This document shows positions 1,935 through 18,220 of a DNA stretch of 62,043 nt, piece after piece. How positions within the stretch are numbered: position 1 is the stretch's first letter; each line of letters starts with the position of its first letter. The notes below the pieces were generated by a model. It worked only from the letters and a program-made list of their open reading frames with translations, was not told the origin of the DNA and did not search any database. This DNA comes from an uncultured Bacilli bacterium (GTDB lineage Bacteria > Bacillota_I > Bacilli_A > RF39 > UBA660), in contig CANRAQ010000001.1 of NCBI GenBank assembly GCA_947628725.1, positions 1 through 62,043 on the forward strand, in the 5' to 3' direction. Made by a program: the position numbers and the translations under genes.

Positions 1935-1957
1935 ATTTTTACCTCCGATAATCATTA

Positions 1958-3926: not shown

Positions 3927-3941
3927 AATTTCATCCCTTTC

Positions 3942-4280
3942 CTATTTCGTTTTTTCCTTTTTCAATATAGAAATTTCCTGTACTAAAGTTTTAATTTGAT
4001 CATTTTGTTTAGAAATTCTTATACTTAACAGTAATGAAACATAAAATAGAAAGAAGATAAATAGAATTAAAATCATATTTGATGCAGCTTCAAATCCGAA
4101 AAAATCAGATATATAGAAGATAAATTTAGGAAATAATATTCCAAATTCCATAATTAATGTAAAAAATATCCACAATATTCCAAATCTAATTGATAACTTT
4201 TTTCTTCTAATTCTTTTAATTATAAAATATATTTGTATAAATATTATTATAGTCAAAAACAATTGTAATCTGTTATTCAT
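3942..4280 (-). CDS. DUF2304-like small membrane protein
   Basis: 112 aa with 3-4 TM helices and a C-terminal charged helix. Overlaps by 4 nt the GT2 gene upstream of it, the usual genomic partner of DUF2304. Confidence 0.5.
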   Translation of the reverse strand: MNNRLQLFLTIIIFIQIYFIIKRIRRKKLSIRFGILWIFFTLIMEFGILFPKFIFYISDFFGFEAASNMILILFIFFLFYVSLLLSIRISKQNDQIKTLVQEISILKKEKTK

Positions 4281-4987
4281 AGTCTACCTCTTTCTAATTT
4301 AGTAAATATTATAGATAAACATACACTTATCATATAATATATGTTTTTATGTAAATATATAGATGAATGACCATATTTTCTTTCTCTCATATTTACAGGT
4401 ATTTCATCAACTTTTAATCCGTTTAAAAGCAACACTACGACTGATTCAGGTTCAGGATATTCTTGTGGGTAATATTTTGAAAATATTTCTATTACTTTTC
4501 TATTCCCTGCTCTAAATCCACTAGTCGTATCATATATTTTTTTCTTAGTAGTAAATTTGATAATTGATGAAATTATTTTAATTCCTAATTGTCTAGATTT
4601 AGTTGAAGTAAAATTGCTTAATTTTTTTATAAATCTTGAACCAATAACAAAATCATTACCACTTTCTATACTTTTAATTAAATCTTCTATATAATTTTCA
4701 TCGTGTTGGCCATCACCATCAAATTGTATTGCTATATCATAATTATTTTCCAAAGCATATTTATAACCTGTTTGAACGGCACCACCGATACCTAAATTCT
4801 CAATTAAATTAATTACGTTAAATTTATTATCATTACATACTTTTAGTGTATTATCTGTGCTCCCATCATTTATCACGACATAGTCTATATTATATTTTGA
4901 TTTTTTTATAACCTTTTTTAAATTATCAACTGTGTTTTTTATATTTAATTCTTCATTATATGCTGGAATTATTACTAATACTTTCAT
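4277..4987 (-). CDS. Glycosyltransferase family 2 (polyprenyl-phosphate sugar synthase type)
   Basis: 236 aa with MKVLVIIPAYNEE, INDGSTDNT and QFDGDGQHD motifs typical of DPM1/CsbB/GtrB-like GT2 enzymes. Confidence 0.8.
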   Translation of the reverse strand: MKVLVIIPAYNEELNIKNTVDNLKKVIKKSKYNIDYVVINDGSTDNTLKVCNDNKFNVINLIENLGIGGAVQTGYKYALENNYDIAIQFDGDGQHDENYIEDLIKSIESGNDFVIGSRFIKKLSNFTSTKSRQLGIKIISSIIKFTTKKKIYDTTSGFRAGNRKVIEIFSKYYPQEYPEPESVVVLLLNGLKVDEIPVNMRERKYGHSSIYLHKNIYYMISVCLSIIFTKLERGRL

Positions 4988-4995
4988 AAATCCTC

Positions 4996-5481
4996 CTACT
5001 TCTTACTATCTATTTCTTTTTCAATCAACTTAATAAAGTTTTCAGTATTACTTTTATATTTTTTAGGTTTAAATTTCTTTGACTCTTTTATTACATCCCC
5101 AAGTTTATCAAAATCGTCTAATTTTAATATATAACCATTTTCACTAAAATTTTCAATTATTTGAAGTTGATGATCATTTGTGTGTTCTCCATACTTTTCT
5201 AAGCGTGCAGCAGCTATTACTTTTTTATTATTTTTTAGTCCCGCTATTATAGAACCAACACCGCCATGAGTTATCAATAAATCACATTTTTCAATTAATT
5301 CATCAAACTTATCCATAGGTATTAAATCGAAAATTTCCATATCATCAGATTTAAAATCTGCTGATGACCCTGCTTGTACTACGACTTTCTCTTTTATAAC
5401 TTTAAGATCTATTTGCTTTTGTACCGCTTCAAGTAATCTATAAAATTTTTTATCCTGAGTTCCAAGTGTTATCAAAATCAT
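4996..5481 (-). CDS. Alg13-like / PssE-Cps14G-like glycosyltransferase catalytic half (GT28 C-terminal domain)
   Basis: 161 aa. MILITLGTQ...LLITHGGVGSIIAGL...EHTNDHQLQI matches the Glyco_tran_28_C pattern. No Alg14/Cps14F-like partner ORF is seen next to it. Confidence 0.65.
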   Translation of the reverse strand: MILITLGTQDKKFYRLLEAVQKQIDLKVIKEKVVVQAGSSADFKSDDMEIFDLIPMDKFDELIEKCDLLITHGGVGSIIAGLKNNKKVIAAARLEKYGEHTNDHQLQIIENFSENGYILKLDDFDKLGDVIKESKKFKPKKYKSNTENFIKLIEKEIDSKK

Positions 5482-5495
5482 AGAAAACTAACCTC

Positions 5496-8072
5496 CTACA
5501 AACTTTTATTTGATAAAACATTAATCCATATTTTTAATATACTTTCTTTAGAAAATTCTTGAGATTTTTTTATTGCATCTTTTTTCATCTTTTCCCTAAT
5601 TTTTAAATTACTCATATATTTTTCTAATGTGTCAACATATTTATCTTCATTCCTATCTTTTATTATATATCCATTTACACCATCATCAATTATATCACAT
5701 ACTCCACTTTCAGTTTCATATGCAATACAAGGTACACCATAACTCATTGCTTCAATAAGTACCATAGGTAAGCCTTCCGTAATTGATGTCATAGCAAATA
5801 TACTTGAATTAAGCATATATTCTTCGATTTCATCATGATTCATATATCCCAATAATAATACTTTTTCTTCTAATTTTTTTTCTTTAATCAAACTAGATAA
5901 ATTATTAAATTCATCTCCATCGCCTATTATAAACAATTTAGAGTCTTTAATATTTGCTTTATCATATATTCCAATTAATTCATTTAATCTTTTTCCAGTA
6001 TGAAGTCTACCTACACTTATTATATTTTTATTTTTAACATCAGATTTTTTATTAGGATCTACTGTAAACATATTTGGAACTAATATAACTTTAGTATGAT
6101 TATTTTTTGATAAAAATTTCTCATAATCATTTTTCAATGTTGTCGTAAGAGCAAATAGATAATCAATATTATAATAATTATTTTTTATTGTATTAATATA
6201 TTTTTTATCATTATTATGATGTTTATGCTCTTGAGCAATTTTTATTTTATAATTAGCGCCATAACTACTTAAAAGTTTACTAAATTCCATTCTAGTAGAA
6301 ATAATTGCATCACTTTTATTATTAATTATTTCTTTAATTATTAAATATTTTTTCTTAAATAAAATATTTATTGATTTTATAACTTCACCAAATAGCGATA
6401 TGAATTTTTTATCTTTAATACATTGTTTTAATTCATCTCTATTAGGTTCACCGTTATACAAAAATTTTACTTTTATTTTTTTATCTAACTCATTTAACCT
6501 ACTATTATTTAATTTATAAAATGAAACTATTTCAACATTATATTTTTTAGATAATGCATTTGCAGTATTTATTGTAGATGTCTCTATTCCACCATATCCT
6601 AAATGTAAAGCTAAAAATGTTAAATTTTTTACTTTATCACTTTTCTTATAACTTTCATTTAATCTTAATTTTATTATAAGTAATATTATTAATAAAACTA
6701 AAAATATTGAAAAATTAGTATATATATATGTGTATCCTGAAAGTATACTTATTGAAAAGAATATTCCAAGACCCATATAAAGCAAATATGTTTCTAAGTC
6801 ATTAGTTTTAAAATTTTTAATTATATATATAGTAGCTTTAATAAATGTAAGTATTGGAATAATTAACATACATATAAATCCAAATATTCCATAATTAAAT
6901 AAGGCCATGAAGAAATCACTTTCTTCAGATAATGTATTTTCTTGAATTAAAAAGCCTATACCAAATAATTTATATTCTATATCTGATATATTAAATTTGT
7001 ACTTAGAATAATAAAATTGCCTTTTTCTATTTTCAGATGGATGAATTTTACCTTTCTTATATAATTTAGTTAAATAATTTGTAGATAAATTGTTCCATTT
7101 TTTATATAATTTTAATTCAGTTACATTACCTTTATTATTTTTAATTAATTCATCTATTTTTTCTATATTCAAACTTCCATCTACTAATTTCATATTATAG
7201 CCATCTAAAGTTGTGTTTTTATTAGAATTATTTATTTGTACATTAGTATAAACAGGAGTGTATTTATATAAAACCACCATGCTTATTGCACATACACTTA
7301 CAAATACTAAATTAAATATATTATTTTTAAATATTTTCGAATAAAACATTAAAAATATTGATATTATTATATATATTATCAAAGATACTAATACAATCAA
7401 ATAAGGTGTTCTAGTTCCAAGAATCATTATAGTAATTATTATAGGAGTTAATGATAATATCTTTTTATACCAACTATTTCTTGGCTTTAATATTGTATAA
7501 AGAAGTATTGGAAACATTATTGAAATAGCATGTCCAAGTATTTGTCCTGAATCATACCATCCTTTAAATCCTTTTTTAAACTTGTCAGCATATTCGTATG
7601 TCATACCAGATGTACCAGTTATAACTGAAAGCAATAATAATCCAGTATAAATTATAAAAGTTATTAAAACAGTTTTTTTAATATTATCAAACATTTCTTT
7701 TTTATCTTCGTAGTGCTTATACAATACATAATATATTATAAATATAGCAATCATATATATAATGTTAATTAAAAATCTAAATTCATGCATTATAACATTA
7801 TTACTTATATATAATCTATATAGTATCATATAATGTCCTAGCATAAATATTAAAAATAAGAATGCATAAATAAACCATCTTTTCTTATTATTTTCATATT
7901 TGAAAAACATATATAATGCGACTATAAAAATAAATAATGGTTTTACAAATGTAGATATTTGAATTTTTAATATACCATCTAAATATAAATTAGATAAAAT
8001 ATCAAATAATGGTTGCAATATCACATATATTGACATCAATTTTAAAATATTTCGTTGTTCATTTTTGCTCAC
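5496..8072 (-). CDS. Fusion protein: N-terminal O-antigen polymerase/ligase-like (Wzy-type) membrane domain + C-terminal GT4 glycosyltransferase
   Basis: 858 aa. Residues ~1-470 form at least 10 TM helices with a large loop. Residues ~480-858 are a GT-B fold with the ...SITEGLPMVLIEAMSYGVPCIA... (E-x7-E type) GT4 motif. Confidence 0.65.
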   Translation of the reverse strand: MSKNEQRNILKLMSIYVILQPLFDILSNLYLDGILKIQISTFVKPLFIFIVALYMFFKYENNKKRWFIYAFLFLIFMLGHYMILYRLYISNNVIMHEFRFLINIIYMIAIFIIYYVLYKHYEDKKEMFDNIKKTVLITFIIYTGLLLLSVITGTSGMTYEYADKFKKGFKGWYDSGQILGHAISIMFPILLYTILKPRNSWYKKILSLTPIIITIMILGTRTPYLIVLVSLIIYIIISIFLMFYSKIFKNNIFNLVFVSVCAISMVVLYKYTPVYTNVQINNSNKNTTLDGYNMKLVDGSLNIEKIDELIKNNKGNVTELKLYKKWNNLSTNYLTKLYKKGKIHPSENRKRQFYYSKYKFNISDIEYKLFGIGFLIQENTLSEESDFFMALFNYGIFGFICMLIIPILTFIKATIYIIKNFKTNDLETYLLYMGLGIFFSISILSGYTYIYTNFSIFLVLLIILLIIKLRLNESYKKSDKVKNLTFLALHLGYGGIETSTINTANALSKKYNVEIVSFYKLNNSRLNELDKKIKVKFLYNGEPNRDELKQCIKDKKFISLFGEVIKSINILFKKKYLIIKEIINNKSDAIISTRMEFSKLLSSYGANYKIKIAQEHKHHNNDKKYINTIKNNYYNIDYLFALTTTLKNDYEKFLSKNNHTKVILVPNMFTVDPNKKSDVKNKNIISVGRLHTGKRLNELIGIYDKANIKDSKLFIIGDGDEFNNLSSLIKEKKLEEKVLLLGYMNHDEIEEYMLNSSIFAMTSITEGLPMVLIEAMSYGVPCIAYETESGVCDIIDDGVNGYIIKDRNEDKYVDTLEKYMSNLKIREKMKKDAIKKSQEFSKESILKIWINVLSNKSL

Positions 8073-8091
8073 TTTATCACATCCTAAAATA

Positions 8092-9165
8092 TTATTTGAG
8101 TAGTTCTAATGTTTTTTTCATTATTTCTTCATTATCACCTTTATAATTTTTCATATTATTATCTAAATCTTTAAAAGAAACTTTACCATCTAGTATATCT
8201 TTCATCATATATTTTAAAGATTCATCATCGTTTTTTACAATTATTCCATATTTTCCATCTTCAAGTATTTCTCTTGGACCTACTATATCTGTTGTTAATA
8301 CTTTTGTTTTTAATAATAAAGCTTCCTTTATTACTATACCATACCCTTCCATATAACTTGAAAGAACAAAAAAATCTGCTGCTTTTATATATGGATATGG
8401 GTTAGTTTTAAGTCCTAACATTTCTACTTTATCTTCTACATCATACTCATGTACCATATTTTTTATTTTTTCAAAATTTGGGCCATCACCAACAAGTTGA
8501 ATTTTAAAATTATAACCCAAATCCTTTAAATATTTTGCTGCCATAACTAACCTATCCTGTCGTTTTTGATCACGCATTTTAGCAACATTTACAAAAGTAA
8601 AAACATCGTTCTTAACTTCAAACTCTTTTGACTTTTCTAATATTTCATTTTCATTTATAAAATTATATATTACTTCTACCTTATTTTCTGGAATACTATA
8701 TTTATCACAAAAAATAGTTTTTGCTTCTTTTGATACACATATTACCTTATCTAATTTTGAATATGTATTTTTTATCTCTTTTTCGCCAATACCTATATCA
8801 AATTTTGATACATCGTTATGGATCCATCCATATTTTTTTATTTTTTTATTTATATCTGCAACCCAAGTACCACATCTACCTTCCATATAACCTAAGGCAG
8901 CATAATAGTCTTTTTTATTTGCAATTTTATTTATAACTTTTCTTCTATAAAAAGGTATATATCTAAATAAAGCATATGAAAATATGTTTTTCTTTAATCT
9001 ATATACATTTACATTCTTTGGAACAAAATCCATTAATGATCCAACTGGCTCTAATAAATACAAATCTATTTCAAAATTTTTATTTAAATAATTGAGTGTA
9101 TCTGTTAAGGCTTTTTCTGCTCCACCCATATCCATAGTATAACCAAATATTAATATCTTTTTCAT
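8092..9165 (-). CDS. Glycosyltransferase family 4
   Basis: 357 aa with MGGAEKAL near the N-terminus and SSYMEGYGIVIKEALLLKTKVLTTD at the C-terminus (GT4 signature). Confidence 0.8.
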   Translation of the reverse strand: MKKILIFGYTMDMGGAEKALTDTLNYLNKNFEIDLYLLEPVGSLMDFVPKNVNVYRLKKNIFSYALFRYIPFYRRKVINKIANKKDYYAALGYMEGRCGTWVADINKKIKKYGWIHNDVSKFDIGIGEKEIKNTYSKLDKVICVSKEAKTIFCDKYSIPENKVEVIYNFINENEILEKSKEFEVKNDVFTFVNVAKMRDQKRQDRLVMAAKYLKDLGYNFKIQLVGDGPNFEKIKNMVHEYDVEDKVEMLGLKTNPYPYIKAADFFVLSSYMEGYGIVIKEALLLKTKVLTTDIVGPREILEDGKYGIIVKNDDESLKYMMKDILDGKVSFKDLDNNMKNYKGDNEEIMKKTLELLK

Positions 9166-9169
9166 ACAA

Positions 9170-10024
9170 TCATCCTCTAATTTTATAAACTATATAAGTA
9201 GGTATATATAAAAGTAATACTTTAAACTTACATTTTACTTCACTTAAAGTTGTTTTAAAACCAACTTTGCTATAAAAACTAAATAATATATAAGCATATA
9301 CATTATATAATTTATTATCAATATCTAATAGTTCTTTATGATATAATCTATTTCCCTTAGGATTCCTTTTTACTAAAGAAAAATAATTTGACGAATATCC
9401 ATTATCTAGATATTTTACGGAAGCAGCAACATAATTTTTACACATAAACATATAATTTTTATCTATTCTATTATATAAAAGAGCTTCAGGAACAAATTTT
9501 TCACCTTCAAAAATTGGAAAACGATATTTTTCAATTACAGATTTTTTAAAAGTGAGAAGTTTATCACCTTTTACTTTATGCCTATTATATAAATCATGGT
9601 ATTTAGTAATTAAATTATCATCAGGAAACATAGTTCCTACTATCTTTTTTTTATTATCAATATAATTATTTAAATATATTATACCAGCAATATTATTATC
9701 AAGATTAACATAATCACTATTTATTTTTTCAATTGAGCCTTTAGTAAGTATATCATCAGAATCTATGCAAAGAAAAATATCACCTTTAGCGTTATCTAAA
9801 CCGACATTATACGCAGATTGCTTGCCACCGTTTTCTTTATATACATAATTTATTTTTATTTTTTTCTCTTTTTTTAATTTTTCAATATATTCTTTAGTGT
9901 CATCAATAGATCCATCATCAACTATTAACCATTCAAAATTTGCTTTATCTTGCTTTAATAATGATTCATATAATTTTTCTAATTCTTTTCGCCTATTATA
10001 TGTTGGTGTAAAAACTGTTATCAT
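9170..10024 (-). CDS. Glycosyltransferase family 2
   Basis: ORF track 9170..10039. Start set at ATG 10024 (MITVFTPTYNRR), which forms a TAATG overlap with the upstream stop and follows a GGAGG. Motifs VDDGSIDDT and IDSDD. Confidence 0.8.
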   Translation of the reverse strand: MITVFTPTYNRRKELEKLYESLLKQDKANFEWLIVDDGSIDDTKEYIEKLKKEKKIKINYVYKENGGKQSAYNVGLDNAKGDIFLCIDSDDILTKGSIEKINSDYVNLDNNIAGIIYLNNYIDNKKKIVGTMFPDDNLITKYHDLYNRHKVKGDKLLTFKKSVIEKYRFPIFEGEKFVPEALLYNRIDKNYMFMCKNYVAASVKYLDNGYSSNYFSLVKRNPKGNRLYHKELLDIDNKLYNVYAYILFSFYSKVGFKTTLSEVKCKFKVLLLYIPTYIVYKIRG

Positions 10025-10932
10025 TAAATAAACCTCCACATTAATTTATAGTAAAGCTTTTTTAATTTTCTAATGAATGTATCATTTATAATATTATCTA
10101 AAACTTTTCTTTTCTTCAATTCCTTTATATATAATTTTTTATCATTTTTATCTAATGTTTTAGACTTAAATATAACTGCATTTGATATAAAACTTCTATA
10201 TAGTCTATCATTTTGTTTATATTTAATATCGATAAGTCTATCATATTGATGTAACATATCATAGGCTTTTTTTATTCTCTTTTCCCTTGAATCAGATGAC
10301 ATAATACTATTTTGTCTTTGAACATAATTATATCCATAATAATCTAAATAGTAAATATATTTAGACTTCATAACTATTTCAGGCGTAAGCCCAAAGTCTT
10401 CATGTATCATACCTTTAACATATTGAAATTTATTTTTTTTCCAAAATTTTAGATTATATATGTAACTCCATGCTGGTTCAAAAAATTCAAGTTTAACTAA
10501 ATCATCGAAACAAACTCTACCACTAAATGTAAAACCTTGTTCATATCTTATCAAATTTCCCAAATCATCAACCAATCTTATTTTAATTTTTATTAAATCT
10601 ATATTTTTATTAGAAATTAATACTTGATTAACTCTTTCCAAATAGTCTAAATCTATGTAATCGTCACTATCAATCAATACTAAATAATCACCCGTAGCAT
10701 ATTTAATACCATAATTTCTAGCATCACTAAGTCCACCATTTTCTTTTTTATAACTTTTAAAGCGATTATCTTTTTTAACATATTCATCAATTATTTGTTG
10801 AGAATTATCCTTAGTACCATCATTTACTATTATTACTTCAAAATTTTTATAAGTTTGGTTAATAATACTATTTAAACATTTATCAATATATTTTTCTACA
10901 TTATATACTGGAATTACTATACTAAATTTCAT
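10024..10932 (-). CDS. Glycosyltransferase family 2
   Basis: 302 aa with MKFSIVIPVYNVEKYI, VNDGTKDNS and IDSDDY motifs. Confidence 0.8.
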   Translation of the reverse strand: MKFSIVIPVYNVEKYIDKCLNSIINQTYKNFEVIIVNDGTKDNSQQIIDEYVKKDNRFKSYKKENGGLSDARNYGIKYATGDYLVLIDSDDYIDLDYLERVNQVLISNKNIDLIKIKIRLVDDLGNLIRYEQGFTFSGRVCFDDLVKLEFFEPAWSYIYNLKFWKKNKFQYVKGMIHEDFGLTPEIVMKSKYIYYLDYYGYNYVQRQNSIMSSDSREKRIKKAYDMLHQYDRLIDIKYKQNDRLYRSFISNAVIFKSKTLDKNDKKLYIKELKKRKVLDNIINDTFIRKLKKLYYKLMWRFI

Positions 10933-10941
10933 AAATCACCA

Positions 10942-11826
10942 TCATATTTCTTCAATAATACTATCTATATATTTTTTATCATTTATTTCTTCTAATTTAT
11001 CTTGTTCCATTACTTCATTTACAATCTTATTTTTAACTGCTTTTTTCTCTTTTGCATTTTCTCTAAACCATTCATACTCCAAGTCTAAATGTCCTAAATC
11101 TATAGCCTTTATACCTATAGATGCAAGATCATACGCTAAAACAGTTGCAGTTGGTCCTAAAGCTATTAAAACGATTTCATCGTTGTGATTTTTCTTTACA
11201 GTATTATATATTTTTTCATATTTTGAAAAAGCATTTTTATTAGGGCATAATATTCTTTTTATACTTTTAGAATTATCAAACAAATCATTATTTACTCCTA
11301 ATCTACTATACTTTCCTTCTACAATCATGATGTTCTTACCATCCCATAATTTCTTTAAATTTTGGAATATCTCTAAACTTATGCTCGTATCTTTATATCT
11401 TATATATGGTCTTGTTATACATGAATCACAGTAAGTTTTATTTTTATACTTTTTATTTAAATAAATATTTTTATAATCTTTTATTTGTTCTAACCAAAAT
11501 ATTTCCTCATTATATTTTAATTTCCTTGTAATTTTATATGTATATACTGCTGGTATACAAACAGCTATAAAATTATCTTGAGAGAATAAAATCTTTTCTA
11601 ACCTCTTTTGTAGATTGGCATCAAAATCTTGAAATTTGATAGAACTACCATTTATTATATTAAATTCCCCATCACCATATCTACATACAGATAAATTATT
11701 ATCTATTATATATTTTATAGATTTCATAGAATTCATAACCTTAGGTGGTCGTTTAAAAATATATATAATTCTAGTTACAACATATAAATAACTTAAATGT
11801 AAAAAATGTTTGATATGAGTTATCAT
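10942..11826 (-). CDS. GT-D-fold (DUF1792-type) glycosyltransferase
   Basis: 294 aa. LSVCRYGDGEF motif and overall size resemble the DUF1792/SP_1767 family. Assignment is from memory. Confidence 0.55.
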   Translation of the reverse strand: MITHIKHFLHLSYLYVVTRIIYIFKRPPKVMNSMKSIKYIIDNNLSVCRYGDGEFNIINGSSIKFQDFDANLQKRLEKILFSQDNFIAVCIPAVYTYKITRKLKYNEEIFWLEQIKDYKNIYLNKKYKNKTYCDSCITRPYIRYKDTSISLEIFQNLKKLWDGKNIMIVEGKYSRLGVNNDLFDNSKSIKRILCPNKNAFSKYEKIYNTVKKNHNDEIVLIALGPTATVLAYDLASIGIKAIDLGHLDLEYEWFRENAKEKKAVKNKIVNEVMEQDKLEEINDKKYIDSIIEEI

Positions 11827-11829
11827 AAA

Positions 11830-12330
11830 TCACCCTCTATTAAATTTTAATATATAATCTATAACTTCACGAACAGCACCATTACCGCCATTAACACTAC
11901 TTATGTAATTAGCAATTTTTTTAATTTCTTTACAAGCATCATTTGGGCACGCTATAAAGCCCCCAAATTTTTTAATTTCCATCATACATTCTAAATCAAC
12001 TAAGTCATCCCCTACATAAGCAACATTTTTTAAAGTATAATTTTTGTCATGTTTTTCGTTATAAGTATTTAATATTTCTTGAATTTTTGATTCTTTATTG
12101 CTTACATTTTGATAGATTTCTGTAATTCCTAAATCTTTACATCTATTTTCAACAATTTTACTATTTCTAGCTGTTATAATAACAGGAATGATATCTAATT
12201 TTGGTAAGATATTTTTTATGCCACATCCATCTTTAATATCAAATACTTTAAATATTTCTCCATCATTTCCCATATAAATTTTTCCATCTGTTAGAGTACC
12301 ATCAACATCCATAAAAAAGAACTTAATCAT
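11830..12330 (-). CDS. HAD-IIIA phosphatase of the KdsC family (3-deoxy-ulosonate phosphate phosphatase-like)
   Basis: 166 aa. FMDVDGTLTDGKIY, FDIKDGCGI, IITARNS, YVGDDLVDLECM and NGGNGAVREVIDYIL follow the KdsC pattern along the whole length. Confidence 0.8.
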   Translation of the reverse strand: MIKFFFMDVDGTLTDGKIYMGNDGEIFKVFDIKDGCGIKNILPKLDIIPVIITARNSKIVENRCKDLGITEIYQNVSNKESKIQEILNTYNEKHDKNYTLKNVAYVGDDLVDLECMMEIKKFGGFIACPNDACKEIKKIANYISSVNGGNGAVREVIDYILKFNRG

Positions 12331-13970
12331 AATCTCATACCCTTCTTATTTTCAGTTTGTTGATTATTTTCTATTATATTTTCAAATTGACTAGTTGTAA
12401 CAAAAAATAAATTATTAATACTCTTTTTCTCAAAAAAATCTGAAAGCATCTTTGAAATTAAAAAATTTGTATGGTTAGGATTATCTAAAACGTTTGATAA
12501 CTCTAAATCAGAACTTGCATAGTTATTTGGTGTATAACTATACCCATCAAGACCAGCTATTCCAACAGAATTTACATTTAACTTATCTAATAAATATAAT
12601 AATAAAATCGTTGAATTATCAATATGTTCATTACCTGGACTTACTAAATCAGTAAATGCAACAATATTTTCTTTATCATCATTTTTATTTTGCTTGATAT
12701 TAGAAGTAATTATTTTTTTATAATTTTTGTAATTATCTTCATTTTTCAAATTTGTATAACGTCTCGTATTACTTATAAAAATATAATCACATTTTAAATT
12801 TTGTGGTATGAAGCCAACTGAAATTACTATTGGATTTGTTTCATTTATATACTCCTGTATTTTATCTTTTTCTATTTTTATTGTGCTACCAGGTGCTAAA
12901 AGTAAAATGTTTTTCCCAAAAAATTCTTTTTTTAAATTATCTAAACCAAGTGCAGTTGGAATACTACTTTTTAAACTTTCTAGATATGTTTTTTCTAGTA
13001 AATCGTAATCATATCTTTTACGAGCCAATCCAATTTTATCAAGAATATATCTAATTGTTTTTGATCTTATACTACTTTTTTCCGTTAGATATGCAATATT
13101 ATTAACATGAGCTCCATAACTACCAGCAATAAAATATGGTGTTGAATATCCCCAATTACATTTAGTCCTTAAATTATCCATATAATCATCAATTACATCT
13201 AATAGTGAATCAATATCATATTCATAGCCCCATTTTGTATTTAAGTATTGCGCTATTAATTCAGTTGGTGTATTACCAGCACCTCTACCCATACCAGAAA
13301 TAGTTCCATCAATAACGCCTTCTCTTTTACCAGAAGAAATTCTAGTAAATTCTTGAGAAAGTGCATTAGATAATTGCATGTTGTTATGTGAGTGAAATCC
13401 AACTTTGCAGGAAGAAATTAAATATTTATCAATTATCTCAAATACTTTAGTTAAATCTTCAGGATACATAGATCCAAAAGTATCAACAATAGAAAAACTA
13501 TATGGTTCAACCTCATTAATAAGTTTAATAAATTCTATAAGTTCTTCTTCAGTATATCCTAAAATATCAACAGGTTGAACAAATAATTTATAACCTTTTT
13601 CTTTAATTTTTTTACATGCTTCTATTGCACCATATCTTTCATTTTTAAAGAAACACTCTCTAACTGCATCTATTGATTCATTATCGCACTCATCTAAATT
13701 ATCTACAGAAAATCTACTATAATCAGCTAATACCGTAAACATAGTTCCATTTTTATCTTTAGGAATAAATCTTTTGGCATCTTGTGAGTTTCTAAAAACA
13801 GTTTTTCCCTCACCAAAACCTTCATTTTGAAAAAAACCAATTTCAATAAAGTCTATTTTCGTTTTTAATAAGCCATCAATAATACCTTTTATTACATTAT
13901 CACCAAATTTTTTATCAATTAAATATGCTCCATCTCTTAATGTACAATCAAGTAATTGTATATGTTTCAC
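12327..13970 (-). CDS. HMGL-like (pyruvate carboxyltransferase-fold) aldolase domain fused to a ~200-aa C-terminal domain of unclear function
   Basis: 547 aa. N-terminal LLDCTLRDG and VGFHSHNNMQLSNA (His-x-His metal site) are hallmarks of the DmpG/LeuA/HMG-CoA-lyase TIM-barrel family. The C-terminal half (ILLLAPGSTI...GIAGLDGYS) looks Rossmann-like. Confidence 0.65.
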   Translation of the reverse strand: MKHIQLLDCTLRDGAYLIDKKFGDNVIKGIIDGLLKTKIDFIEIGFFQNEGFGEGKTVFRNSQDAKRFIPKDKNGTMFTVLADYSRFSVDNLDECDNESIDAVRECFFKNERYGAIEACKKIKEKGYKLFVQPVDILGYTEEELIEFIKLINEVEPYSFSIVDTFGSMYPEDLTKVFEIIDKYLISSCKVGFHSHNNMQLSNALSQEFTRISSGKREGVIDGTISGMGRGAGNTPTELIAQYLNTKWGYEYDIDSLLDVIDDYMDNLRTKCNWGYSTPYFIAGSYGAHVNNIAYLTEKSSIRSKTIRYILDKIGLARKRYDYDLLEKTYLESLKSSIPTALGLDNLKKEFFGKNILLLAPGSTIKIEKDKIQEYINETNPIVISVGFIPQNLKCDYIFISNTRRYTNLKNEDNYKNYKKIITSNIKQNKNDDKENIVAFTDLVSPGNEHIDNSTILLLYLLDKLNVNSVGIAGLDGYSYTPNNYASSDLELSNVLDNPNHTNFLISKMLSDFFEKKSINNLFFVTTSQFENIIENNQQTENKKGMRL

Positions 13971-14641
13971 TTAGTATCGTCCTTCCCATTATTTATAATC
14001 ATCATATATATTGCATTAGCAATTTCAAAATCTTCTGGATAATCTATATCTACACATTCTATTCCATTTACTTCTACAATTAATGGGTTGATACCAATAC
14101 GTCTTTTATATTTAGTGAATACTTCTTTTTTAAAAACATAAGCTGCAGAAACTTCACTATATATAGGATTTAAATCTTGTGTTCTAGGAACATTTTCAGC
14201 ATTGAAATTAATAGGCTTATTTTCAGTATTCCATAATAATTTTTGTATTTTTTCACCAGTAAAAGCAGAATCATATTGTCCTTCCTTTACAGAACTAAAA
14301 CATTTATTAATATGCTCTATACTAACAAATGGTGATGTGCAATGGCATACGGCATAAATATCAGCATCAACTATTTTCATAAATTCAGAAATAATATCCT
14401 GTGGTGTAGCCTCTTGTGTATCAAGAAATTCTGGCCTTTTTAAGAATTTAACACCAGGTATTAAATATTCCTTAATTGCTTCATTACTACAAAAAACATA
14501 TAATTCATCAATTTCACTACACTTAACTAATGTTTTAAGAAATACTGTTATTAATGCAGTTCCATCATCAAATTTTTTTGTATTTTTTCCAGGTGTCCTT
14601 TGATTATTTAGTTTTATTGGTACAAATGCTACTGTTTTCAT
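13967..14641 (-). CDS. Acylneuraminate-type cytidylyltransferase family protein (CMP-sugar-acid synthetase-like)
   Basis: 224 aa. AFVPIKLNNQRTPGKN at the N-terminus and VDIDYPEDFEIA near the C-terminus resemble the CTP_transf_3 (NeuA/KdsB-like) family. 4-nt overlap with the aldolase gene. Confidence 0.7.
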   Translation of the reverse strand: MKTVAFVPIKLNNQRTPGKNTKKFDDGTALITVFLKTLVKCSEIDELYVFCSNEAIKEYLIPGVKFLKRPEFLDTQEATPQDIISEFMKIVDADIYAVCHCTSPFVSIEHINKCFSSVKEGQYDSAFTGEKIQKLLWNTENKPINFNAENVPRTQDLNPIYSEVSAAYVFKKEVFTKYKRRIGINPLIVEVNGIECVDIDYPEDFEIANAIYMMIINNGKDDTK

Positions 14642-15653
14642 TATTTCTCCTACTTTCTAAAAATTCAAATCCTAAAGCTATTTTATCTTTTACAAAATTT
14701 AATTGTTCAAGAGATGATGATGTTATTGTTATAGCTTTATCAAAATTAACATTTTTATTATAATTTAAAATTTCAATTGGTATATTTTTACTTACTATAT
14801 TTACTTTATTATTTATTTTTTTATAATCAAAATTATCTCTTGGATGTGCCTTTATATATACATCATAATCTTTAATATAATCATTTATAATTTGAGTATA
14901 TATATCTATTTGATCTTTCATACTAAGTACCATCTTATCAACAAAAAGTGGTTGTGTTAATAATAATATTTTTTTTCCTTTTTTAGTCATGTCTATATTA
15001 TCATTCATAAATATGTTATATATTAATAATTTATCATCTTCATTAATTTTGGAAAACAATTCTTTTCTAGGTACTTCTACAACATTTTTATTCTTAATAA
15101 ATATTTTTGATTTATCATTTACTTCTATATCTATAACATATTTAGATTGCCCAAAAAAGTCATAACCTATATGTAAAATCTTTTTTATTATTTTCTTAAT
15201 TCTATACTTAAAGTCTGGATTTAAAAATGTTGTTCTATATTTAAAATTACCTTTAATATAGTAGAATGCATCTAATCCATCCTCGATTAAATGATACTTA
15301 ATTTTCATATCAATTAAATATGCCCCAATCGTAGTCCAATCATTATAAACATATATATCCTTATAATTTTTAAAGTCAATATCACTGTTTTTTTGAAATA
15401 AATCTATCATTTCATTTTTTCGAAAAATTTTTCTTTCTATATTTTCTTTATTAAATAATTCACTGATCTTTATTTCATCATAATAAATAACTGACATAAA
15501 TAAATTTGACTTTTTTAAATTTTTAATTAATTTTTGACAATCTGGTATACTACTACATATAACTATATCAGATTTTTGTTTTGAAATAATTGTCTTTACA
15601 AGAGTTACATATACTTGATAATATGTACTACAAACATATATACTATTTTTCAT
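14604..15653 (-). CDS. Sialyltransferase-like glycosyltransferase (GT52 / polysialyltransferase-like)
   Basis: 349 aa. N-terminal VCSTYYQVYV resembles the C.TP.Q start of GT52. Contains an E-D-G motif (HLIEDGLD) and an H-P motif (IKAHPRD), the two motifs reported as shared by bacterial GT38/52/80 sialyltransferases. Confidence 0.55.
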   Translation of the reverse strand: MKNSIYVCSTYYQVYVTLVKTIISKQKSDIVICSSIPDCQKLIKNLKKSNLFMSVIYYDEIKISELFNKENIERKIFRKNEMIDLFQKNSDIDFKNYKDIYVYNDWTTIGAYLIDMKIKYHLIEDGLDAFYYIKGNFKYRTTFLNPDFKYRIKKIIKKILHIGYDFFGQSKYVIDIEVNDKSKIFIKNKNVVEVPRKELFSKINEDDKLLIYNIFMNDNIDMTKKGKKILLLTQPLFVDKMVLSMKDQIDIYTQIINDYIKDYDVYIKAHPRDNFDYKKINNKVNIVSKNIPIEILNYNKNVNFDKAITITSSSLEQLNFVKDKIALGFEFLESRRNNENSSICTNKTK

Positions 15654-17205
15654 TAATCAAATTCTTCTTTCTATTTAAAATAAAACTTTTAAATTTAGAT
15701 ATATCCTCTTTATTAAACATAATAAACATACTTACGACTAATCCAATAATTCCACATATAATTGCATCTATAATTAGCATAAACCAACTATTAACTACAA
15801 GAATTTTTGAAATTAATATAAATATAACTGCTATAACTGATGAACTTAGTATTGATTTTATTATTGGCTCATAAAATGATGTCAATTTTGCATTTAGACA
15901 TTTTGCAGAGTACATTGGTGTAAATGTCAAATTCTTTATTATTCCAGTTATAACACTTACTCCAGCAACAACAATAATTGGTTCAGATATTAAATTTAAT
16001 TTTAATATAACAAATACTATAGCTATATTTAAAAATCCAATACCCAATGTCATTAATGAATTTAATTTTATTTTATTAGTTATAGTAAATACACTAAATA
16101 AAATATTTATTGATGTTCCTACTATACTTCCAGATAAAGTTATTAATGTTAATATAGTAAGTAAACTTGCATTTTCATTTGGTAACCATAATTTATAAAA
16201 TGGAAATGCAAAACACATTATTCCTACCAATACGACATTTGAAAATAATGAAACAATTTTCATTGAAAATCTTATATCTTTAATTATTTCATTATCTTTT
16301 AGTGCAAACTTCTTTGTCATATTTGGTTGAAAAATATTAACTAAAAGCGCAGTTAATAAACTAACAGATGATGATATGGTTTTAGATATTGAAAGTTGTC
16401 CCATTGCAGTTGCACTTATAAAAATATTAGAAATTAACAAATCTAATCCATCAGACAAAATTTGTCCTAATTTAGTAATAGTATTCCATACTCCAGATAT
16501 AAAAATTTCTATAATTTTTTTTATATCAAAATATTTCATTTTTACCTTGATAAATGGTAAAAATTTCTTTGTATATTTAACATTGAAAAATAGTAAATAT
16601 GCTGTTGAACATATAGTAGCAATACCAACTAAAATAATATTGGCACCAAAAATTTTAAATAATATAAACATTACAACAACTTTTAAAATTCCTGATTCCA
16701 TATTTCTAATTGTAAATAACTCTATCTTATCTCCTGCGTATGTTGATACTGAATATGTAGTATTTATTAAACTCAAGAAAAAATTAATAAAAATTAATAA
16801 AAATAATATTTTAACACTAAAAATTAGTTTACTTGGTATAACTATTAAACTATTCAAATATATTACACAAAATATTGATGGAATTAATAGTAAAAGTATT
16901 ATAAAAATATTAGTTACTAGAACACTTGTAAAATACTTATTAGCATCTTCATGTTTTTTTTCAAAAATAGCAACAGAAATGAATCTTGAGGCCATAGAAT
17001 TTATTGCAAGTGTAACAATCGATGCATAATTAACAAAATTATTTGCTAAAGAAACAAATCCGTATGCATCTGTACCTATATTTTTAGTTATATAAGGGGT
17101 TAGAAAAAAATTAATTCCTAATGTTGTTATAAATGAAACAAGGCAAGCCAATACATTTATAAATAATTTTTTACTTTTCATTTTTGCTCCTTTTTTTATG
17201 ATCAA
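15643..17205 (-). CDS. wzx: Wzx-type polysaccharide flippase (MOP superfamily)
   Basis: 520 aa with about 14 TM helices, in a glycan-locus context. The real start may be ATG 17181 (MKSKKLF). Confidence 0.7.
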   Translation of the reverse strand: MIIKKGAKMKSKKLFINVLACLVSFITTLGINFFLTPYITKNIGTDAYGFVSLANNFVNYASIVTLAINSMASRFISVAIFEKKHEDANKYFTSVLVTNIFIILLLLIPSIFCVIYLNSLIVIPSKLIFSVKILFLLIFINFFLSLINTTYSVSTYAGDKIELFTIRNMESGILKVVVMFILFKIFGANIILVGIATICSTAYLLFFNVKYTKKFLPFIKVKMKYFDIKKIIEIFISGVWNTITKLGQILSDGLDLLISNIFISATAMGQLSISKTISSSVSLLTALLVNIFQPNMTKKFALKDNEIIKDIRFSMKIVSLFSNVVLVGIMCFAFPFYKLWLPNENASLLTILTLITLSGSIVGTSINILFSVFTITNKIKLNSLMTLGIGFLNIAIVFVILKLNLISEPIIVVAGVSVITGIIKNLTFTPMYSAKCLNAKLTSFYEPIIKSILSSSVIAVIFILISKILVVNSWFMLIIDAIICGIIGLVVSMFIMFNKEDISKFKSFILNRKKNLINEK

Positions 17206-18220
17206 ATATTATATCAGTCTTAAGTACAAATATAATTAAACATAATAGTAATATCCCATATATGATGTAACCTATATGTGTATCTACTAAAAGCCATATA
17301 ACTGATGCTGTTGAGAACAAGGCAGTTATTAAATAAATTATTAAAACAGTTTTTCTTACACTATAATTTCTCTTTAAAAATTGGTGATGAAAGTGGCTTT
17401 TATCAGGTGTGCCAATACTTTCACCCTTTAATTTTCTTCTTATTATAGCGCATAATGTATCAAAGATTGGTACAGTTAATATACCTAATGGAATTATTAT
17501 TGAAGAAGTTATTAAAGTCTTAAATCCAAGTAATGTTACAACGGACATAGTAAATCCTAAAAACATTGATCCTGAATCACCCATAAATATCTTTGCTGGA
17601 TTAAAATTATGAACTAAAAATCCTAATGTTGATCCTAACATAGTAAATGTAATTACAACTGAAAGCCCAATTCTTCCTTGAAAATATGCTATAACACCGA
17701 TAGTTAAGAAAAATATTGAACTTATTCCACCAGCAAGACCATCAAGCCCATCTATCAAATTCATACAATTGATACATCCTAATATAAATATAATTGTTAT
17801 TATATATGCGAATTTTCCAAAATTAACATATATTCCAAACATAGATGCATCTGAAAGTAAAAGTTTACCATAAAATACAACTATTAAAGCAGCAACTAAT
17901 TGCCCAATTAACTTATATTGAGGTTTAATTGGATTTATATCATCAATTATTCCAGTAATAAGTAATATAAAACTTCCAATTAAAATTGAATTCATAGTTG
18001 GTGTATGTTCACCAAAAATCATATAGCCAAGTAAAAATCCACCATAAATTCCTAACCCACCTAAACGTGGCATAGGTACAGTATGTACCTTTCTTTCATT
18101 AGGTTCATCTATAGCCCCTATATGAAATGCAATCTTTTTAATAAAAGGTGTAATAACTACAACAAATATAAATGGAATAAAAACCATAGTTAATATCGTT
18201 GTCAAATTTACATTATTCAT
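17171..18220 (-). CDS. Polyprenyl-phosphate N-acetylhexosamine-1-phosphate transferase (WecA/TagO/MraY family)
   Basis: 349 aa with 10-11 TM helices. Motifs IDEPNERKVH, GIIDDI, NLIDGLDGLA and FMGDSGSMFLGF are characteristic of the MraY/WecA family. Confidence 0.85.
   Translation of the reverse strand: MNNVNLTTILTMVFIPFIFVVVITPFIKKIAFHIGAIDEPNERKVHTVPMPRLGGLGIYGGFLLGYMIFGEHTPTMNSILIGSFILLITGIIDDINPIKPQYKLIGQLVAALIVVFYGKLLLSDASMFGIYVNFGKFAYIITIIFILGCINCMNLIDGLDGLAGGISSIFFLTIGVIAYFQGRIGLSVVITFTMLGSTLGFLVHNFNPAKIFMGDSGSMFLGFTMSVVTLLGFKTLITSSIIIPLGILTVPIFDTLCAIIRRKLKGESIGTPDKSHFHHQFLKRNYSVRKTVLIIYLITALFSTASVIWLLVDTHIGYIIYGILLLCLIIFVLKTDIIFDHKKRSKNEK

Follow-up and report, generated by a model that had tools for sequence, protein, structure and literature searches.

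Four overlapping genes of a bacterial glycan operon most likely direct the synthesis and transfer of a Kdo/sialic-acid-like CMP-sugar acid, the acid being formed by a metal-dependent pyruvate aldolase and not by a PEP-dependent synthase. It is rather probable that these genes constitute a self-contained module, which makes a CMP-activated 3-deoxy-2-ulosonic acid and adds it to a surface glycan. This reading rests on observed family assignments, conserved catalytic residues, operon structure, linkage across phyla, and the lack of a PEP-dependent synthase in this locus and in related ones. A pyruvate-dependent route to an ulosonic acid had been suggested in an earlier note on this DNA; the suggestion is supported, as every element of it that could be tested held, while both the pyruvate donor and the particular sugar remain inferences. 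The gene set is widespread but unstudied, and no paper on this aldolase-based route was found in the literature. The new elements are the predicted fold of the aldolase's C-terminal domain, the replacement of a catalytic His by Tyr in the N-terminal one, three aldolase subclades with their helper genes, and cultured carriers of the family.

Organization of the glycan locus

The four ORFs occupy positions 11830-15653 of the window (the whole 62-kb stretch of DNA that was analysed). They are real, tightly packed on the minus strand with overlaps of 38, 4 and 4 nt, and lie where the earlier note had placed them. The glycan operon to which they belong (Table 1) begins with the gene of the initiating transferase and proceeds, after the phosphatase gene, to that of the GT-D glycosyltransferase. 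The multi-pass membrane protein has no Pfam match of its own; in tblastn, it shows 37-42% identity to aldolase neighbours in three related loci (L032, L033 and L035), and these neighbours fall in a cluster with a representative matching PF13440/PF01943. The Wzy-like/GT4 fusion, the GT28-C half-enzyme and the flippase mark a Wzx/Wzy-type assembly line. The locus had been described as lacking a PEP-dependent synthase, and this was borne out: no NeuB/KdsA-type family occurs among the Pfam matches of any ORF between positions 195 and 18220. The host is a low-GC gut bacterium, a Gram-positive spore-former in which SpoVAD is present.

Table 1. Features of the glycan locus (positions in the window)
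Feature	Position	Strand	Basis or detail
MraY/WecA-type polyprenyl-phosphate sugar-1-phosphate transferase, initiating	17171..18220	-	PF00953 Glycos_transf_4, 131.4 bits
Multi-pass membrane protein, probably Wzx-type flippase	15643..17205	-	homology to aldolase neighbours
Sialyltransferase-like GT (GT38/GT52 superfamily), predicted	14604..15653	-	349 aa; homologs and motifs
CTP_transf_3 cytidylyltransferase (KdsB/NeuA/PseF superfamily)	13967..14641	-	224 aa; PF02348
HMGL-like aldolase, whole protein	12327-13970	-	547 aa, GTG start
Aldolase residues 1-334, DRE-TIM metallolyase barrel and helical subdomain, DmpG-like	12969..13970	-	PF00682, structures
Aldolase residues 335-547, predicted MptE-like/sialyltransferase-like Rossmann-type fold	12327..12968	-	AF2 and Foldseek
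KdsC/YrbI-family HAD phosphatase, ulosonate-phosphate phosphatase type	11830..12330	-	166 aa; TIGR01670
GT-D fold glycosyltransferase, SP_1767 family	10942..11826	-	PF08759, 276 bits; TIGR03728, 301.9 bits (cut-off 290.75)
Two GT2 and one GT4 glycosyltransferases, same operon	8092..10932	-	PF00535 twice; PF00534/PF13439
Wzy/O-antigen-ligase-like membrane domain fused to GT4 domain	5496-8072	-	PF13425, 136.7 bits; PF00534, 135.8 bits
GT28-C half-enzyme	4996-5481	-	PF04101, 44.4 bits

Phosphatase, cytidylyltransferase and transferase

The families proposed earlier for the three partners of the aldolase proved to be right, although that of the transferase is supported by homologs and motifs alone. 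The phosphatase belongs to the KdsC/YrbI family (TIGR01670, 149.2 bits against a cut-off of 106.95) and its HAD motifs, DVDGTLTDG and GDD..D, are conserved in 45 homologs; it stays below the cut-offs for KdsC (149 against 208) and for KDN-9-P phosphatase (103 against 180). The cytidylyltransferase matches PF02348 (CTP_transf_3) with 44.4 bits (cut-off 22.6) and retains the N-terminal CTP loop, with P8, R15, P17 and K19 conserved in 71 homologs. The PseF model gives 56 bits where 205.7 would be required, and matches to KdsB models are weak. None of the four proteins, the aldolase included, reaches an equivalog cut-off (DmpG, KdsC, KDN-9-P phosphatase, PseF or KdsB).

The transferase has no direct match in Pfam or among PDB sequences. 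Its homologs (33-66% identity) carry PF07388 (polysialyltransferase) and/or PF07922 (GT52), and they include a GT52 capsule protein of Streptococcus agalactiae (32% identity, E 1.3e-30). Across 70 aligned homologs, E124, D125, K268, H270 and P271 are invariant, which covers the E-D-G and H-P motifs except for position 126, where 56 homologs have G and 14 have A; R272 is present in 67 of the 70, and position 273 is occupied by D (52 homologs) or E (18). Profile comparison with GT52 or polysialyltransferase-like neighbours in other loci gave match probabilities of 96.8-100%. The protein is predicted, from homologs and motifs alone, to be the transferase for the CMP-activated sugar acid.

The aldolase N-terminal domain

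The N-terminal domain of the 547-aa protein is predicted to be a C-C bond-forming synthase, with no assay of the family to support it. Residues 4-258 match PF00682 (HMGL-like; 72.9 bits, cut-off 29) and carry both signatures, DCTLRDG and FHSHNN, so that its earlier placement in the HMGL/DmpG-type TIM-barrel family was correct. The segment D8-G14 and residues H193, H195, N196 and N197 are invariant in 48 homologs; among these are the metal ligands and the enolate-stabilising Arg (R12, D13, H193, H195). The best PDB sequence match is 3dxi, the N-terminal domain of BVU_2661, followed by the DmpG-type entries 1nvm, 4lrs and 8ih7, and a Foldseek search with the barrel returned 3dxi and DmpG-type aldolases in the same order (E 2e-16 to 1e-13). 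The DmpG-type NCBIfam match has an E value of 1.6e-23, compared to 1.4e-11 or weaker for Claisen condensases, and in Foldseek ranks 1-12 are taken by pyruvate aldolases and 3dxi, with Claisen condensases at 13 and below. In both sequence and fold, the nearest relatives of the aldolase are therefore pyruvate-specific class II aldolases (DmpG type) and the orphan 3dxi.

The 4-hydroxy-2-oxovalerate aldolases DmpG, BphI and HsaF (1nvm, 4jn6, 4lrs, 8ih7) are its best characterised structural neighbours and share with it a TIM barrel, the accompanying helical subdomain, an Asp/His/His metal site and the LRDG Arg. However, identity is only 17-20%, and the aldolase has a fused MptE-like domain, no DmpF-type dehydrogenase partner, and a context of glycan biosynthesis instead of aromatic or steroid catabolism. 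The catalytic base of DmpG, His21, aligns with Tyr16 (Arg in one subclade), and the chemistry may thus differ from that of DmpG. Orthology to DmpG was ruled out by this replacement together with a TIGR03217 score of 73.9 bits, where the cut-off is 286. The closest solved relative, BVU_2661 of Bacteroides vulgatus, is a structural-genomics "putative aldolase" (E 1.5e-26, 25% identity) with the corresponding motifs DCTLRDGGY and GFHGHDN; it is of the GGY type, whereas the window's aldolase is of the GAY type. The title of entry 3dxi refers to the N-terminal domain alone, a sign that BVU_2661 extends past the aldolase domain. No publication on BVU_2661 or 3dxi was found, and no function is assigned.

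It can be asked whether the DRE-TIM domain uses pyruvate as aldol donor at all. It could instead catalyse a Claisen-type condensation, decarboxylate oxaloacetate or act as a lyase, and the module would then join CMP to another, possibly non-carbohydrate, hydroxy or oxo acid phosphate that decorates the glycan. The superfamily does hold isopropylmalate, homocitrate and citramalate synthases, HMG-CoA lyase and carboxyltransferases, all matched by the aldolase with lower scores, and the non-conserved DmpG His and the missed equivalog cut-offs also leave room for this. It is nevertheless unlikely, considering that pyruvate aldolases are the closest relatives, that the helper genes include RpiB and a KDG-type kinase, and that the partner families (KdsC/YrbI, CTP_transf_3, GT38/52, Maf-like) are, to our knowledge, known only with 2-keto-3-deoxy sugar acids.

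Gene linkage across related loci

Among 80 related loci, a cytidylyltransferase homolog lies directly upstream of the aldolase in 71 and a KdsC phosphatase directly downstream in 49. In the 57 loci with enough flank for presence counts, CTP_transf_3 is found in 52, adjoining the aldolase, KdsC in 36, and a transferase of the type using CMP-ulosonates (GT38/52-like or Maf/MptE-like) in 42, usually located immediately before the cytidylyltransferase. Such transferases are of three kinds, namely GT52 (79 bits), polysialyltransferase-like and Maf/MptE-like; Maf enzymes were reported to use CMP-Neu5Ac and CMP-Kdo (bioRxiv 10.1101/2020.06.03.131540; PMC11339370). The association of the genes far exceeds chance and spans Bacillota, Bacteroidota, Fibrobacterota, Verrucomicrobiota (Victivallaceae), Synergistota and Pseudomonadota (Succinivibrio), which is the opposite of what the earlier note had named as its refutation, namely an aldolase that does not co-occur with cytidylyltransferase and phosphatase elsewhere. 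Cultured carriers of the aldolase family are Enterococcus faecium isolates and B. vulgatus (BVU_2661).

The three aldolase subclades differ in their helper genes, which are RpiB, a KDG-type kinase or methyltransferases. RpiB (148 bits, above cut-off) stands between aldolase and KdsC in four loci, and a KDG/KDGal-type kinase, which scores 568 bits with the kinase portion of NF041633, takes the place of KdsC in nine. Both adjoin the aldolase in subclades and so tie it to sugar-phosphate and 2-keto-3-deoxy-acid chemistry; the kinase replacing the phosphatase in one subclade cannot be fitted into a single simple scheme. Neither KdsC nor kinase is present in 13 of the 57 loci, and in two loci (L057, L058) the aldolase is paired with a ThDP enzyme, without a cytidylyltransferase.

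A conventional PEP-dependent synthase of the NeuB, KdsA, LegI or PseI type, with its gene in another part of the genome, might still make the ulosonic acid, and the HMGL-like protein would only modify or recycle it, e.g., as a lyase controlling the free sugar-acid pool. The absence of such a synthase covers the glycan locus of the window and the three-gene neighbourhoods of the 80 loci, not the rest of the genome. Class II pyruvate aldolases (DmpG, BphI, HpaI) are reversible, and a KDG-type kinase beside the aldolase recalls catabolic kdgK-kdgA pairs. However, no NeuB/KdsA-type protein occurs within three genes of the aldolase in the 80 loci, and it is the aldolase, not a synthase, that is locked between cytidylyltransferase and phosphatase in dozens of loci of several phyla. 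Moreover, the KdsC-family phosphatase requires a phosphorylated ulosonate, and we know of no bacterial NeuB-type synthase that produces one. Within the scope of these searches, a distant synthase is quite improbable.

Proposed pathway and comparison with known systems

In the pyruvate-aldol scheme, it is proposed that the DRE-TIM domain binds a divalent metal via Asp13, His193 and His195, and that this site and Arg12 stabilise the pyruvate enolate, which would add to the aldehyde of an aldose phosphate to yield a 3-deoxy-2-ulosonate phosphate; the aldolase would thus take the place of KdsA/NeuB. The KdsC-family phosphatase would strip the terminal phosphate, making the otherwise reversible aldol step effectively irreversible. 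Next, the CTP_transf_3 enzyme would join CMP to the anomeric C2 hydroxyl, and the GT38/52-like transferase would place the sugar acid on a lipid-linked repeat unit of a glycan presumed to be assembled by the Wzx/Wzy-type pathway. The pyruvate donor, the sugar-phosphate acceptor and the product's chain length and stereochemistry are inferred.

The Gram-negative Kdo pathway (KdsD-KdsA-KdsC-KdsB-WaaA) follows the same logic, from an aldose phosphate and a C3 unit to a 3-deoxy-2-ulosonate phosphate, and then likewise employs a KdsC/YrbI-family HAD phosphatase, a CTP_transf_3 cytidylyltransferase and a CMP-dependent transferase; RpiB of the four related loci, a sugar-phosphate isomerase, occupies the place of KdsD. 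In contrast, the module lacks KdsA (PF00793), it relies for condensation on a DRE-TIM metallo-aldolase that carries a fused MptE-like domain and is expected to use pyruvate rather than PEP, its phosphatase and cytidylyltransferase are below the KdsC and KdsB equivalog cut-offs, and its host is Gram-positive, with a Wzx/Wzy glycan and not lipid A as the target. The KDN pathway of Bacteroides thetaiotaomicron, which comprises KDN-9-P synthase BT1714, KDN-9-P phosphatase BT1713 and CMP-KDN synthetase, similarly combines a synthase, a YrbI-family phosphatase (its model, NF058599, is the one giving 103 bits with the module's phosphatase) and a cytidylyltransferase in the capsule locus of a gut bacterium. 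Its synthase is NeuB-like and PEP-dependent, whereas that of the module is HMGL-like.

The aldolase C-terminal domain

The extra domain of about 200 aa, left unexplained by the earlier note, is indeed present, and a separate search with residues 335-547 (AF2 pLDDT 89.7) suggested an MptE-like/sialyltransferase-like nucleotide-binding fold, the function of which is inferred only. The ten top Foldseek matches are confined to SteA (9hmz/9hmy), the archaeal MptE pyrophosphokinase 8sd5 and GT29 sialyltransferases 5bo8/5bo9/2wnb (E 2e-5 to 6e-3, TM 0.40-0.50). The modelled fold agrees with that of Maf/MptE-like proteins (PF01973) and GT29/GT42 sialyltransferases, and weak, motif-colinear profile matches link it to MptE-like proteins, in which an N-terminal hydrophobic strand-(A/G)PG-S is followed, in the same order, by G-x-D. 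In contrast to these families, the domain reaches no Pfam threshold and is found essentially only fused to the aldolase. It may bind a nucleotide and serve in acceptor phosphorylation or in sensing of the CMP-sugar end product.

That the domain is itself a Maf-like CMP-sugar transferase, the 547-aa protein being a synthase-transferase fusion and the GT38/52-like protein otherwise employed, is very doubtful: the resemblance to GT29 sialyltransferases and to the MptE-like family, which includes Maf, and the invariant polar N401, S423, N424, N452 and D475, suggestive of a catalytic or ligand site, are outweighed by the separate transferase already found in 42 of the 57 loci, by best structural matches that are SteA and a pyrophosphokinase, not a glycosyltransferase, at such low TM scores, and by a merely marginal profile similarity to standalone MptE-like neighbours (probability 10%, E 0.003). 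G361, G473 and G476 are also invariant in the 48 homologs. In a scan of 1.8 billion proteins, the full-length matches are proteins about 520-545 aa long, with the domain at roughly residues 335-540, and it occurs essentially only in fusion with the aldolase.

Gene Order and Genomic Setting

The four genes of the module belong to a minus-strand operon in a genome with a G+C content of about 22–25%, and the coordinates that an earlier note had assigned to them from sequence inspection match the ORFs found in the window. Successive ORFs overlap by 38, 4, and 4 nt; therefore, the four genes are almost certainly co-transcribed and partly coupled in translation. The overlap of the transferase and cytidylyltransferase genes (14604–14641) is unusually long, given that the genes after it overlap by only 4 nt, and it looks real because the “MK” start of the cytidylyltransferase is kept in at least 80% of homologs. 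Since genes for an initiating transferase, a probable Wzx-type protein, glycosyltransferases (GT), and a Wzy-like protein flank the module, its setting is a Wzx/Wzy-type surface-glycan operon. The relatives of the multi-pass membrane protein encoded upstream are aldolase neighbours in three loci of other genomes (L032, L033, and L035), where they are members of a Wzx-type cluster (PF13440/PF01943). The GT28 C-terminal half-enzyme has no obvious partner, and a pair of tandem paralogous DUF6020 membrane proteins is encoded at the end of the glycan operon. SpoVAD, encoded elsewhere in the window, marks the host as a spore-former. A rabbit-gut MAG labelled “uncultured Bacilli” (locus L052) carries an aldolase 96% identical to that of the window over the part present.

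Features of the module and of the surrounding glycan operon
Feature	Position	Strand	Length	Remarks
WecA/MraY-type initiating transferase	17171–18220	minus		PF00953; upstream of module
Multi-pass membrane protein	15643–17205	minus		Upstream of module; 37–42% identity to aldolase neighbours
Sialyltransferase-like GT	14604–15653	minus	349 aa	Module
Cytidylyltransferase	13967–14641	minus	224 aa	Module
HMGL-like aldolase fusion	12327–13970	minus	547 aa	Module; GTG start
KdsC-family phosphatase	11830–12330	minus	166 aa	Module
GT-D transferase, two GT2, one GT4				Operon genes downstream of module
O-antigen-ligase/Wzy-like membrane domain (PF13425) fused to GT4 (PF00534)	5496–8072		858 aa	Downstream of module
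GT28 C-terminal half-enzyme	4996–5481		161 aa	After Wzy-GT4 fusion
GT2/DUF2304/small EamA-like set				Downstream of module; precedes DUF6020 pair
Two DUF6020 membrane proteins	195–3586		586 + 542 aa	

Distribution and Gene Linkage

More than 4,900 homologs of the fusion protein are present in a large protein collection. The best 120 of them (529–595 aa) are 60–91% identical over 96–100% of the query, and those that have a name are annotated merely as “aldolase catalytic domain-containing protein” or “4-hydroxy 2-oxovalerate aldolase.” When species-representative genomes were scanned, 80 loci were obtained, found in Bacilli, Lachnospiraceae, Oscillospiraceae, Acutalibacteraceae, and Erysipelotrichaceae and further in Bacteroidales/Tannerellaceae, Fibrobacter, Victivallaceae, Synergistaceae, Succinivibrio, and other groups. 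The aldolases of different phyla are still 54–59% identical, which points to horizontal spread. The neighbouring ORFs of the 80 loci were clustered and the clusters annotated: a CTP_transf_3 gene lies directly upstream of the aldolase in 71 loci, and a KdsC-family gene directly downstream in 49. Among the 57 loci whose flanks reach 3 kb or more upstream and 1.5 kb or more downstream of the aldolase, the CTP_transf_3 cytidylyltransferase is found near it in 52, the KdsC-family phosphatase in 36, and a KDG-type PfkB kinase in 8, so the co-occurrence on which the earlier note had made its pathway depend is borne out. In the same subset, 12 loci contain a GT38/52-like transferase (clusters c9, c32, c34, and c74, related to the window GT with hhalign probabilities of 96.8–100%), 30 an MptE-like transferase, and 42 one or the other. 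Neither transferase class is known to work with anything but CMP-activated ulosonic acids. CMP-Neu5Ac and CMP-Kdo are reportedly accepted by Maf (MptE-like) enzymes (bioRxiv 10.1101/2020.06.03.131540; PMC11339370).

The absence of a PEP-dependent synthase from the locus, noticed earlier from the sequence alone, was also found by Pfam analysis: ORFs 195–18220 of the window gave no match of NeuB (PF03102) or KdsA (PF00793) type. No such family was present among the annotated neighbour clusters of the 80 loci, nor did Pfam matches of another 81 proteins, most of them unclustered and all encoded within three genes of the aldolase, include one. These results concern the neighbourhood of the aldolase, and a conventional PEP-dependent synthase encoded elsewhere in the genome remains a rival explanation. 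All ulosonic-acid routes known to us use PEP-dependent synthases, of either KdsA or NeuB type.

The Aldolase Domain

The 547-aa protein passes the PF00682 (HMGL-like) threshold with 72.9 bits vs. 29 over residues 4–258, and among named families it matches 4-hydroxy-2-oxovalerate aldolases best (E 1.6e-23). Of the solved structures, 3dxi (putative aldolase BVU_2661 from Bacteroides vulgatus, N-terminal domain) is the closest, followed by the DmpG-type aldolases 1nvm, 4lrs/4lrt, 4jn6, and 8ih7. The AlphaFold model, built with 48 homologs, is confident (pLDDT 88.9, pTM 0.82), and its Foldseek ranking agrees with that obtained from sequence, the full-length model giving only TIM-barrel matches. 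In the alignment of the 48 homologs (35–74% identity), D8-C-T-L-R-D-G14, E43, H193-S-H-N-N-M-Q199, and G226/G228/G232-N233 are invariant. The HMMER alignment places R12/D13 of the aldolase on R17/D18 of DmpG (“LRDG”) and H193/H195 on H200/H202 (“HAHHN”), positions which in DmpG/BphI are the enolate-stabilising arginine and the metal ligands. The enzyme is therefore a DRE-TIM metallolyase whose 2-oxo-acid/metal site is intact. His21 of DmpG, following “RDGS” and acting as the catalytic base, aligns with Tyr16; Tyr or Arg is found there in other aldolase subclades, in which “RDG” is followed by G-R or G-Y. The enzyme is not a DmpG orthologue, since its score for the DmpG/BphI equivalog TIGR03217 is only 73.9 bits, with the cut-off at 286 (for NF006049, 83.3 vs. 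229). Neither the window locus nor the set of conserved aldolase neighbours includes a DmpF-type acylating aldehyde dehydrogenase partner.

The second rival explanation is that the DRE-TIM domain does different chemistry. In the NCBI conserved-domain resource, the BVU_2661-like group is described as being of unknown function. The reading as a Claisen condensase of the isopropylmalate synthase or homocitrate synthase type was ranked lower on account of much weaker sequence and fold scores; isopropylmalate, homocitrate, and citramalate synthases, and also carboxyltransferases, match the protein much more weakly than the 4-hydroxy-2-oxovalerate aldolases do.

Cytidylyltransferase, Phosphatase, and Glycosyltransferase

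The cytidylyltransferase passes PF02348 (CTP_transf_3; 44.4 bits vs. a gathering threshold of 22.6) and its N-terminal P-x6-R-x-P-x-K loop (P8, R15, P17, K19) is kept in 71 homologs; it is below the cut-offs of the PseF equivalog (56.2 vs. 205.7) and of the KdsB equivalog models (at most 24 bits vs. 193–255). The phosphatase passes the KdsC/YrbI family TIGR01670 (149.2 bits vs. 106.95) with all HAD motifs conserved (DVDGTLTDG, GDD..D), and falls below the models of Kdo-8-P phosphatase KdsC proper (NF007019; 149.2 vs. 208) and of KDN-9-P phosphatase (NF058599; 103.4 vs. 180). The window GT gave no PF07388 or PF07922 match at E ≤ 0.01 and no direct Pfam or PDB sequence match. Most of its 86 relatives, which include a GT52 capsule protein of Streptococcus agalactiae, match PF07388 (polysialyltransferase, GT38) and/or PF07922 (GT52), and its profile match to a GT52 neighbour cluster has a probability of 100%. 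D/E-D/E-G and H-P motifs have a functional role in GT38/52/80 sialyltransferases. The earlier reading of these motifs in the window GT was correct: E124-D125 (“HLIEDG”) and K-x-H270-P271 (“KAHPRD”) do not vary across 70 aligned homologs, the S. agalactiae GT52 included, with the G of “HLIEDG” being A in 14 of the 70.

The C-terminal Domain

Direct sequence assignment of residues 335–547 failed with Pfam, PDB profiles, and hhalign; consistent results came from the fold search alone. The domain itself has no Pfam match, PF01973 (MptE-like) included, and 7 of its 48 homologs match PF01973 weakly (best E 0.0097). PDB profile matches are marginal (SteA, E 0.036; archaeal MptE pyrophosphokinase, E 0.96), and the hhalign match to standalone MptE-like neighbours of the aldolase is weak (probability 10%, E 0.003), with the two profiles colinear (“APGxS” on “GNGPS”, “IAGxDG” on “GvD”). 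Because Foldseek returned only TIM-barrel matches for the full-length model, the domain was modelled on its own. This model is confident (pLDDT 89.7), and its Foldseek top 10 consists solely of SteA (9hmz, 9hmy), the MptE pyrophosphokinase 8sd5, and the GT29 structures 5bo8/5bo9/2wnb (E 2e-5 to 6e-3, probability 0.94–1.00, TM only 0.40–0.50). The extension, described in the earlier note as unexplained, is thus explained at the level of fold, probably MptE-like/sialyltransferase-like, and not at the level of function. In the 48 homologs, G361, N401, S423-N424, N452, and G473-x-D475-G476 are invariant and D451 nearly so, a conservation pattern characteristic of a site for ligand binding or catalysis and not of a domain that is only structural. 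When 1.8 billion representative proteins were scanned with a profile, the domain was seen in 1,461 clusters (50% identity); shorter matches look like gene fragments ending with it. The full-length matches (~520–545 aa) all have it at about residues 335–540. The domain thus appears to be a distinct branch of its fold, present essentially only in aldolase fusions. With GT29 enzymes among the structural matches, a third rival explanation holds that the C-terminal domain is itself the transferase; the closest enzyme fold is a pyrophosphokinase.

Helper Genes and Aldolase Subclades

In four gut Bacilli loci (L003, L005, L007, and L047), with aldolases 62–66% identical to that of the window, a gene for an RpiB-subfamily sugar-phosphate isomerase lies between the aldolase and KdsC genes (148 bits vs. 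a cut-off of 135; e.g., L007:9659–10108). In the MAG Lapin-028 bin30, the complete module occurs twice, at separate loci (L005 and L007). In the subclade with “DCTLRDGGY,” nine loci without KdsC have a PfkB kinase directly after the aldolase, scoring 568 bits to the kinase part of the KHG/KDPG-aldolase/kinase fusion NF041633 and 248 bits to KDG/KDGal kinases. Chance linkage was rejected as unlikely since the nine loci that have the kinase in this position come from several families. Such a KDG/KDGal-type kinase in the KdsC position, with no phosphatase, is seen in L070, L072, and L075–L080 (e.g., L070:9606–10628). The simple pathway model does not explain a kinase in place of the phosphatase. 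In the “DCTLRDGGR” subclade (L059–L067, L071), a class I SAM methyltransferase and a TylF-type O-methyltransferase flank the aldolase, which suggests that the sugar acid is methylated there. These isomerase, kinase, and methyltransferase helpers link the aldolase with aldose phosphates and 2-keto-3-deoxy acids, and they suggest several specificities; the acceptor of the window enzyme is not fixed by them. By inference, ribose-5-phosphate or arabinose-5-phosphate (eight-carbon product) or a hexose-6-phosphate (nine-carbon product) fits a KdsC-type phosphatase best. In two loci of Riflebacteria and Victivallaceae MAGs (L057:9638–11434 and L058:3913–5700), the fusion adjoins a thiamine-diphosphate enzyme, and neither a cytidylyltransferase nor KdsC is beside it; in these loci, the fusion protein may serve another purpose.

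Proposed Pathway and Its Significance

We consider it fairly probable, though by no means settled, that the aldolase is the condensing enzyme of a CMP-ulosonate pathway. In the first step of this model, a pyruvate enolate at the metal site would add to an aldose phosphate. Next, the KdsC-like enzyme would remove the phosphate, pulling the equilibrium, the cytidylyltransferase would make the CMP-sugar, and the GT38/52-like enzyme would move the sugar onto a lipid-linked repeat unit before Wzx export. For the fused domain, nucleotide-dependent supply of the acceptor and sensing of the end product seem the likeliest roles, neither of them strongly favoured. The module follows the same logic as the Kdo and KDN pathways; however, the condensing enzyme has the DRE-TIM fold and predicted pyruvate chemistry instead of being KdsA or NeuB, and the aldolase has a fusion partner and a Gram-positive Wzx/Wzy context. 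No paper describing an aldolase-based route was found in the searchable full-text literature. A more specific reading, which we think unlikely, assumes an undescribed sugar acid (e.g., a 3-deoxy-octulosonic acid epimer made from ribose-5-phosphate, as hinted by the RpiB relatives) and a bifunctional enzyme: with the help of a nucleotide, its MptE-like domain would prepare or gate the acceptor used by the pyruvate-dependent metallo-aldolase. If true, ulosonic-acid synthesis would have a third solution, independent in evolution of KdsA and NeuB and horizontally spread through gut bacteria.

CMP-activated ulosonic acids (Kdo, sialic, legionaminic, and pseudaminic) shape the recognition of bacteria by immune systems, lectins, and phages. 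Under the aldolase model, the module, abundant and mobile across gut-bacterial phyla, would be an independent route to them. Acidic keto-deoxy sugars on commensals are probably underestimated, because surveys for neuB or kdsA are blind to it. The model would also assign a function to 3dxi, a structural-genomics orphan since 2008, and can be directly tested in cultured organisms, Enterococcus faecium and B. vulgatus. Accessory kdsB, kdsC, kdsD, and hldE, without kdsA, were described in a Danish study of E. faecium ST80 (2026; PMC13689141); this set may be a related locus, its identity with the module locus not being shown. In two E. faecium assemblies, the gene order is MptE-like, WavE, hexapeptide acyltransferase, CTP_transf_3, aldolase, KdsC-like, and Wzx. 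The E. faecium aldolase (540 aa) is 63% and the KdsC-like protein 53% identical to that of the window, and the KdsB-like cytidylyltransferase (L081–L083: GCA_017269615.1, GCA_000395605.1, and GCA_000321545.1) only 26%.
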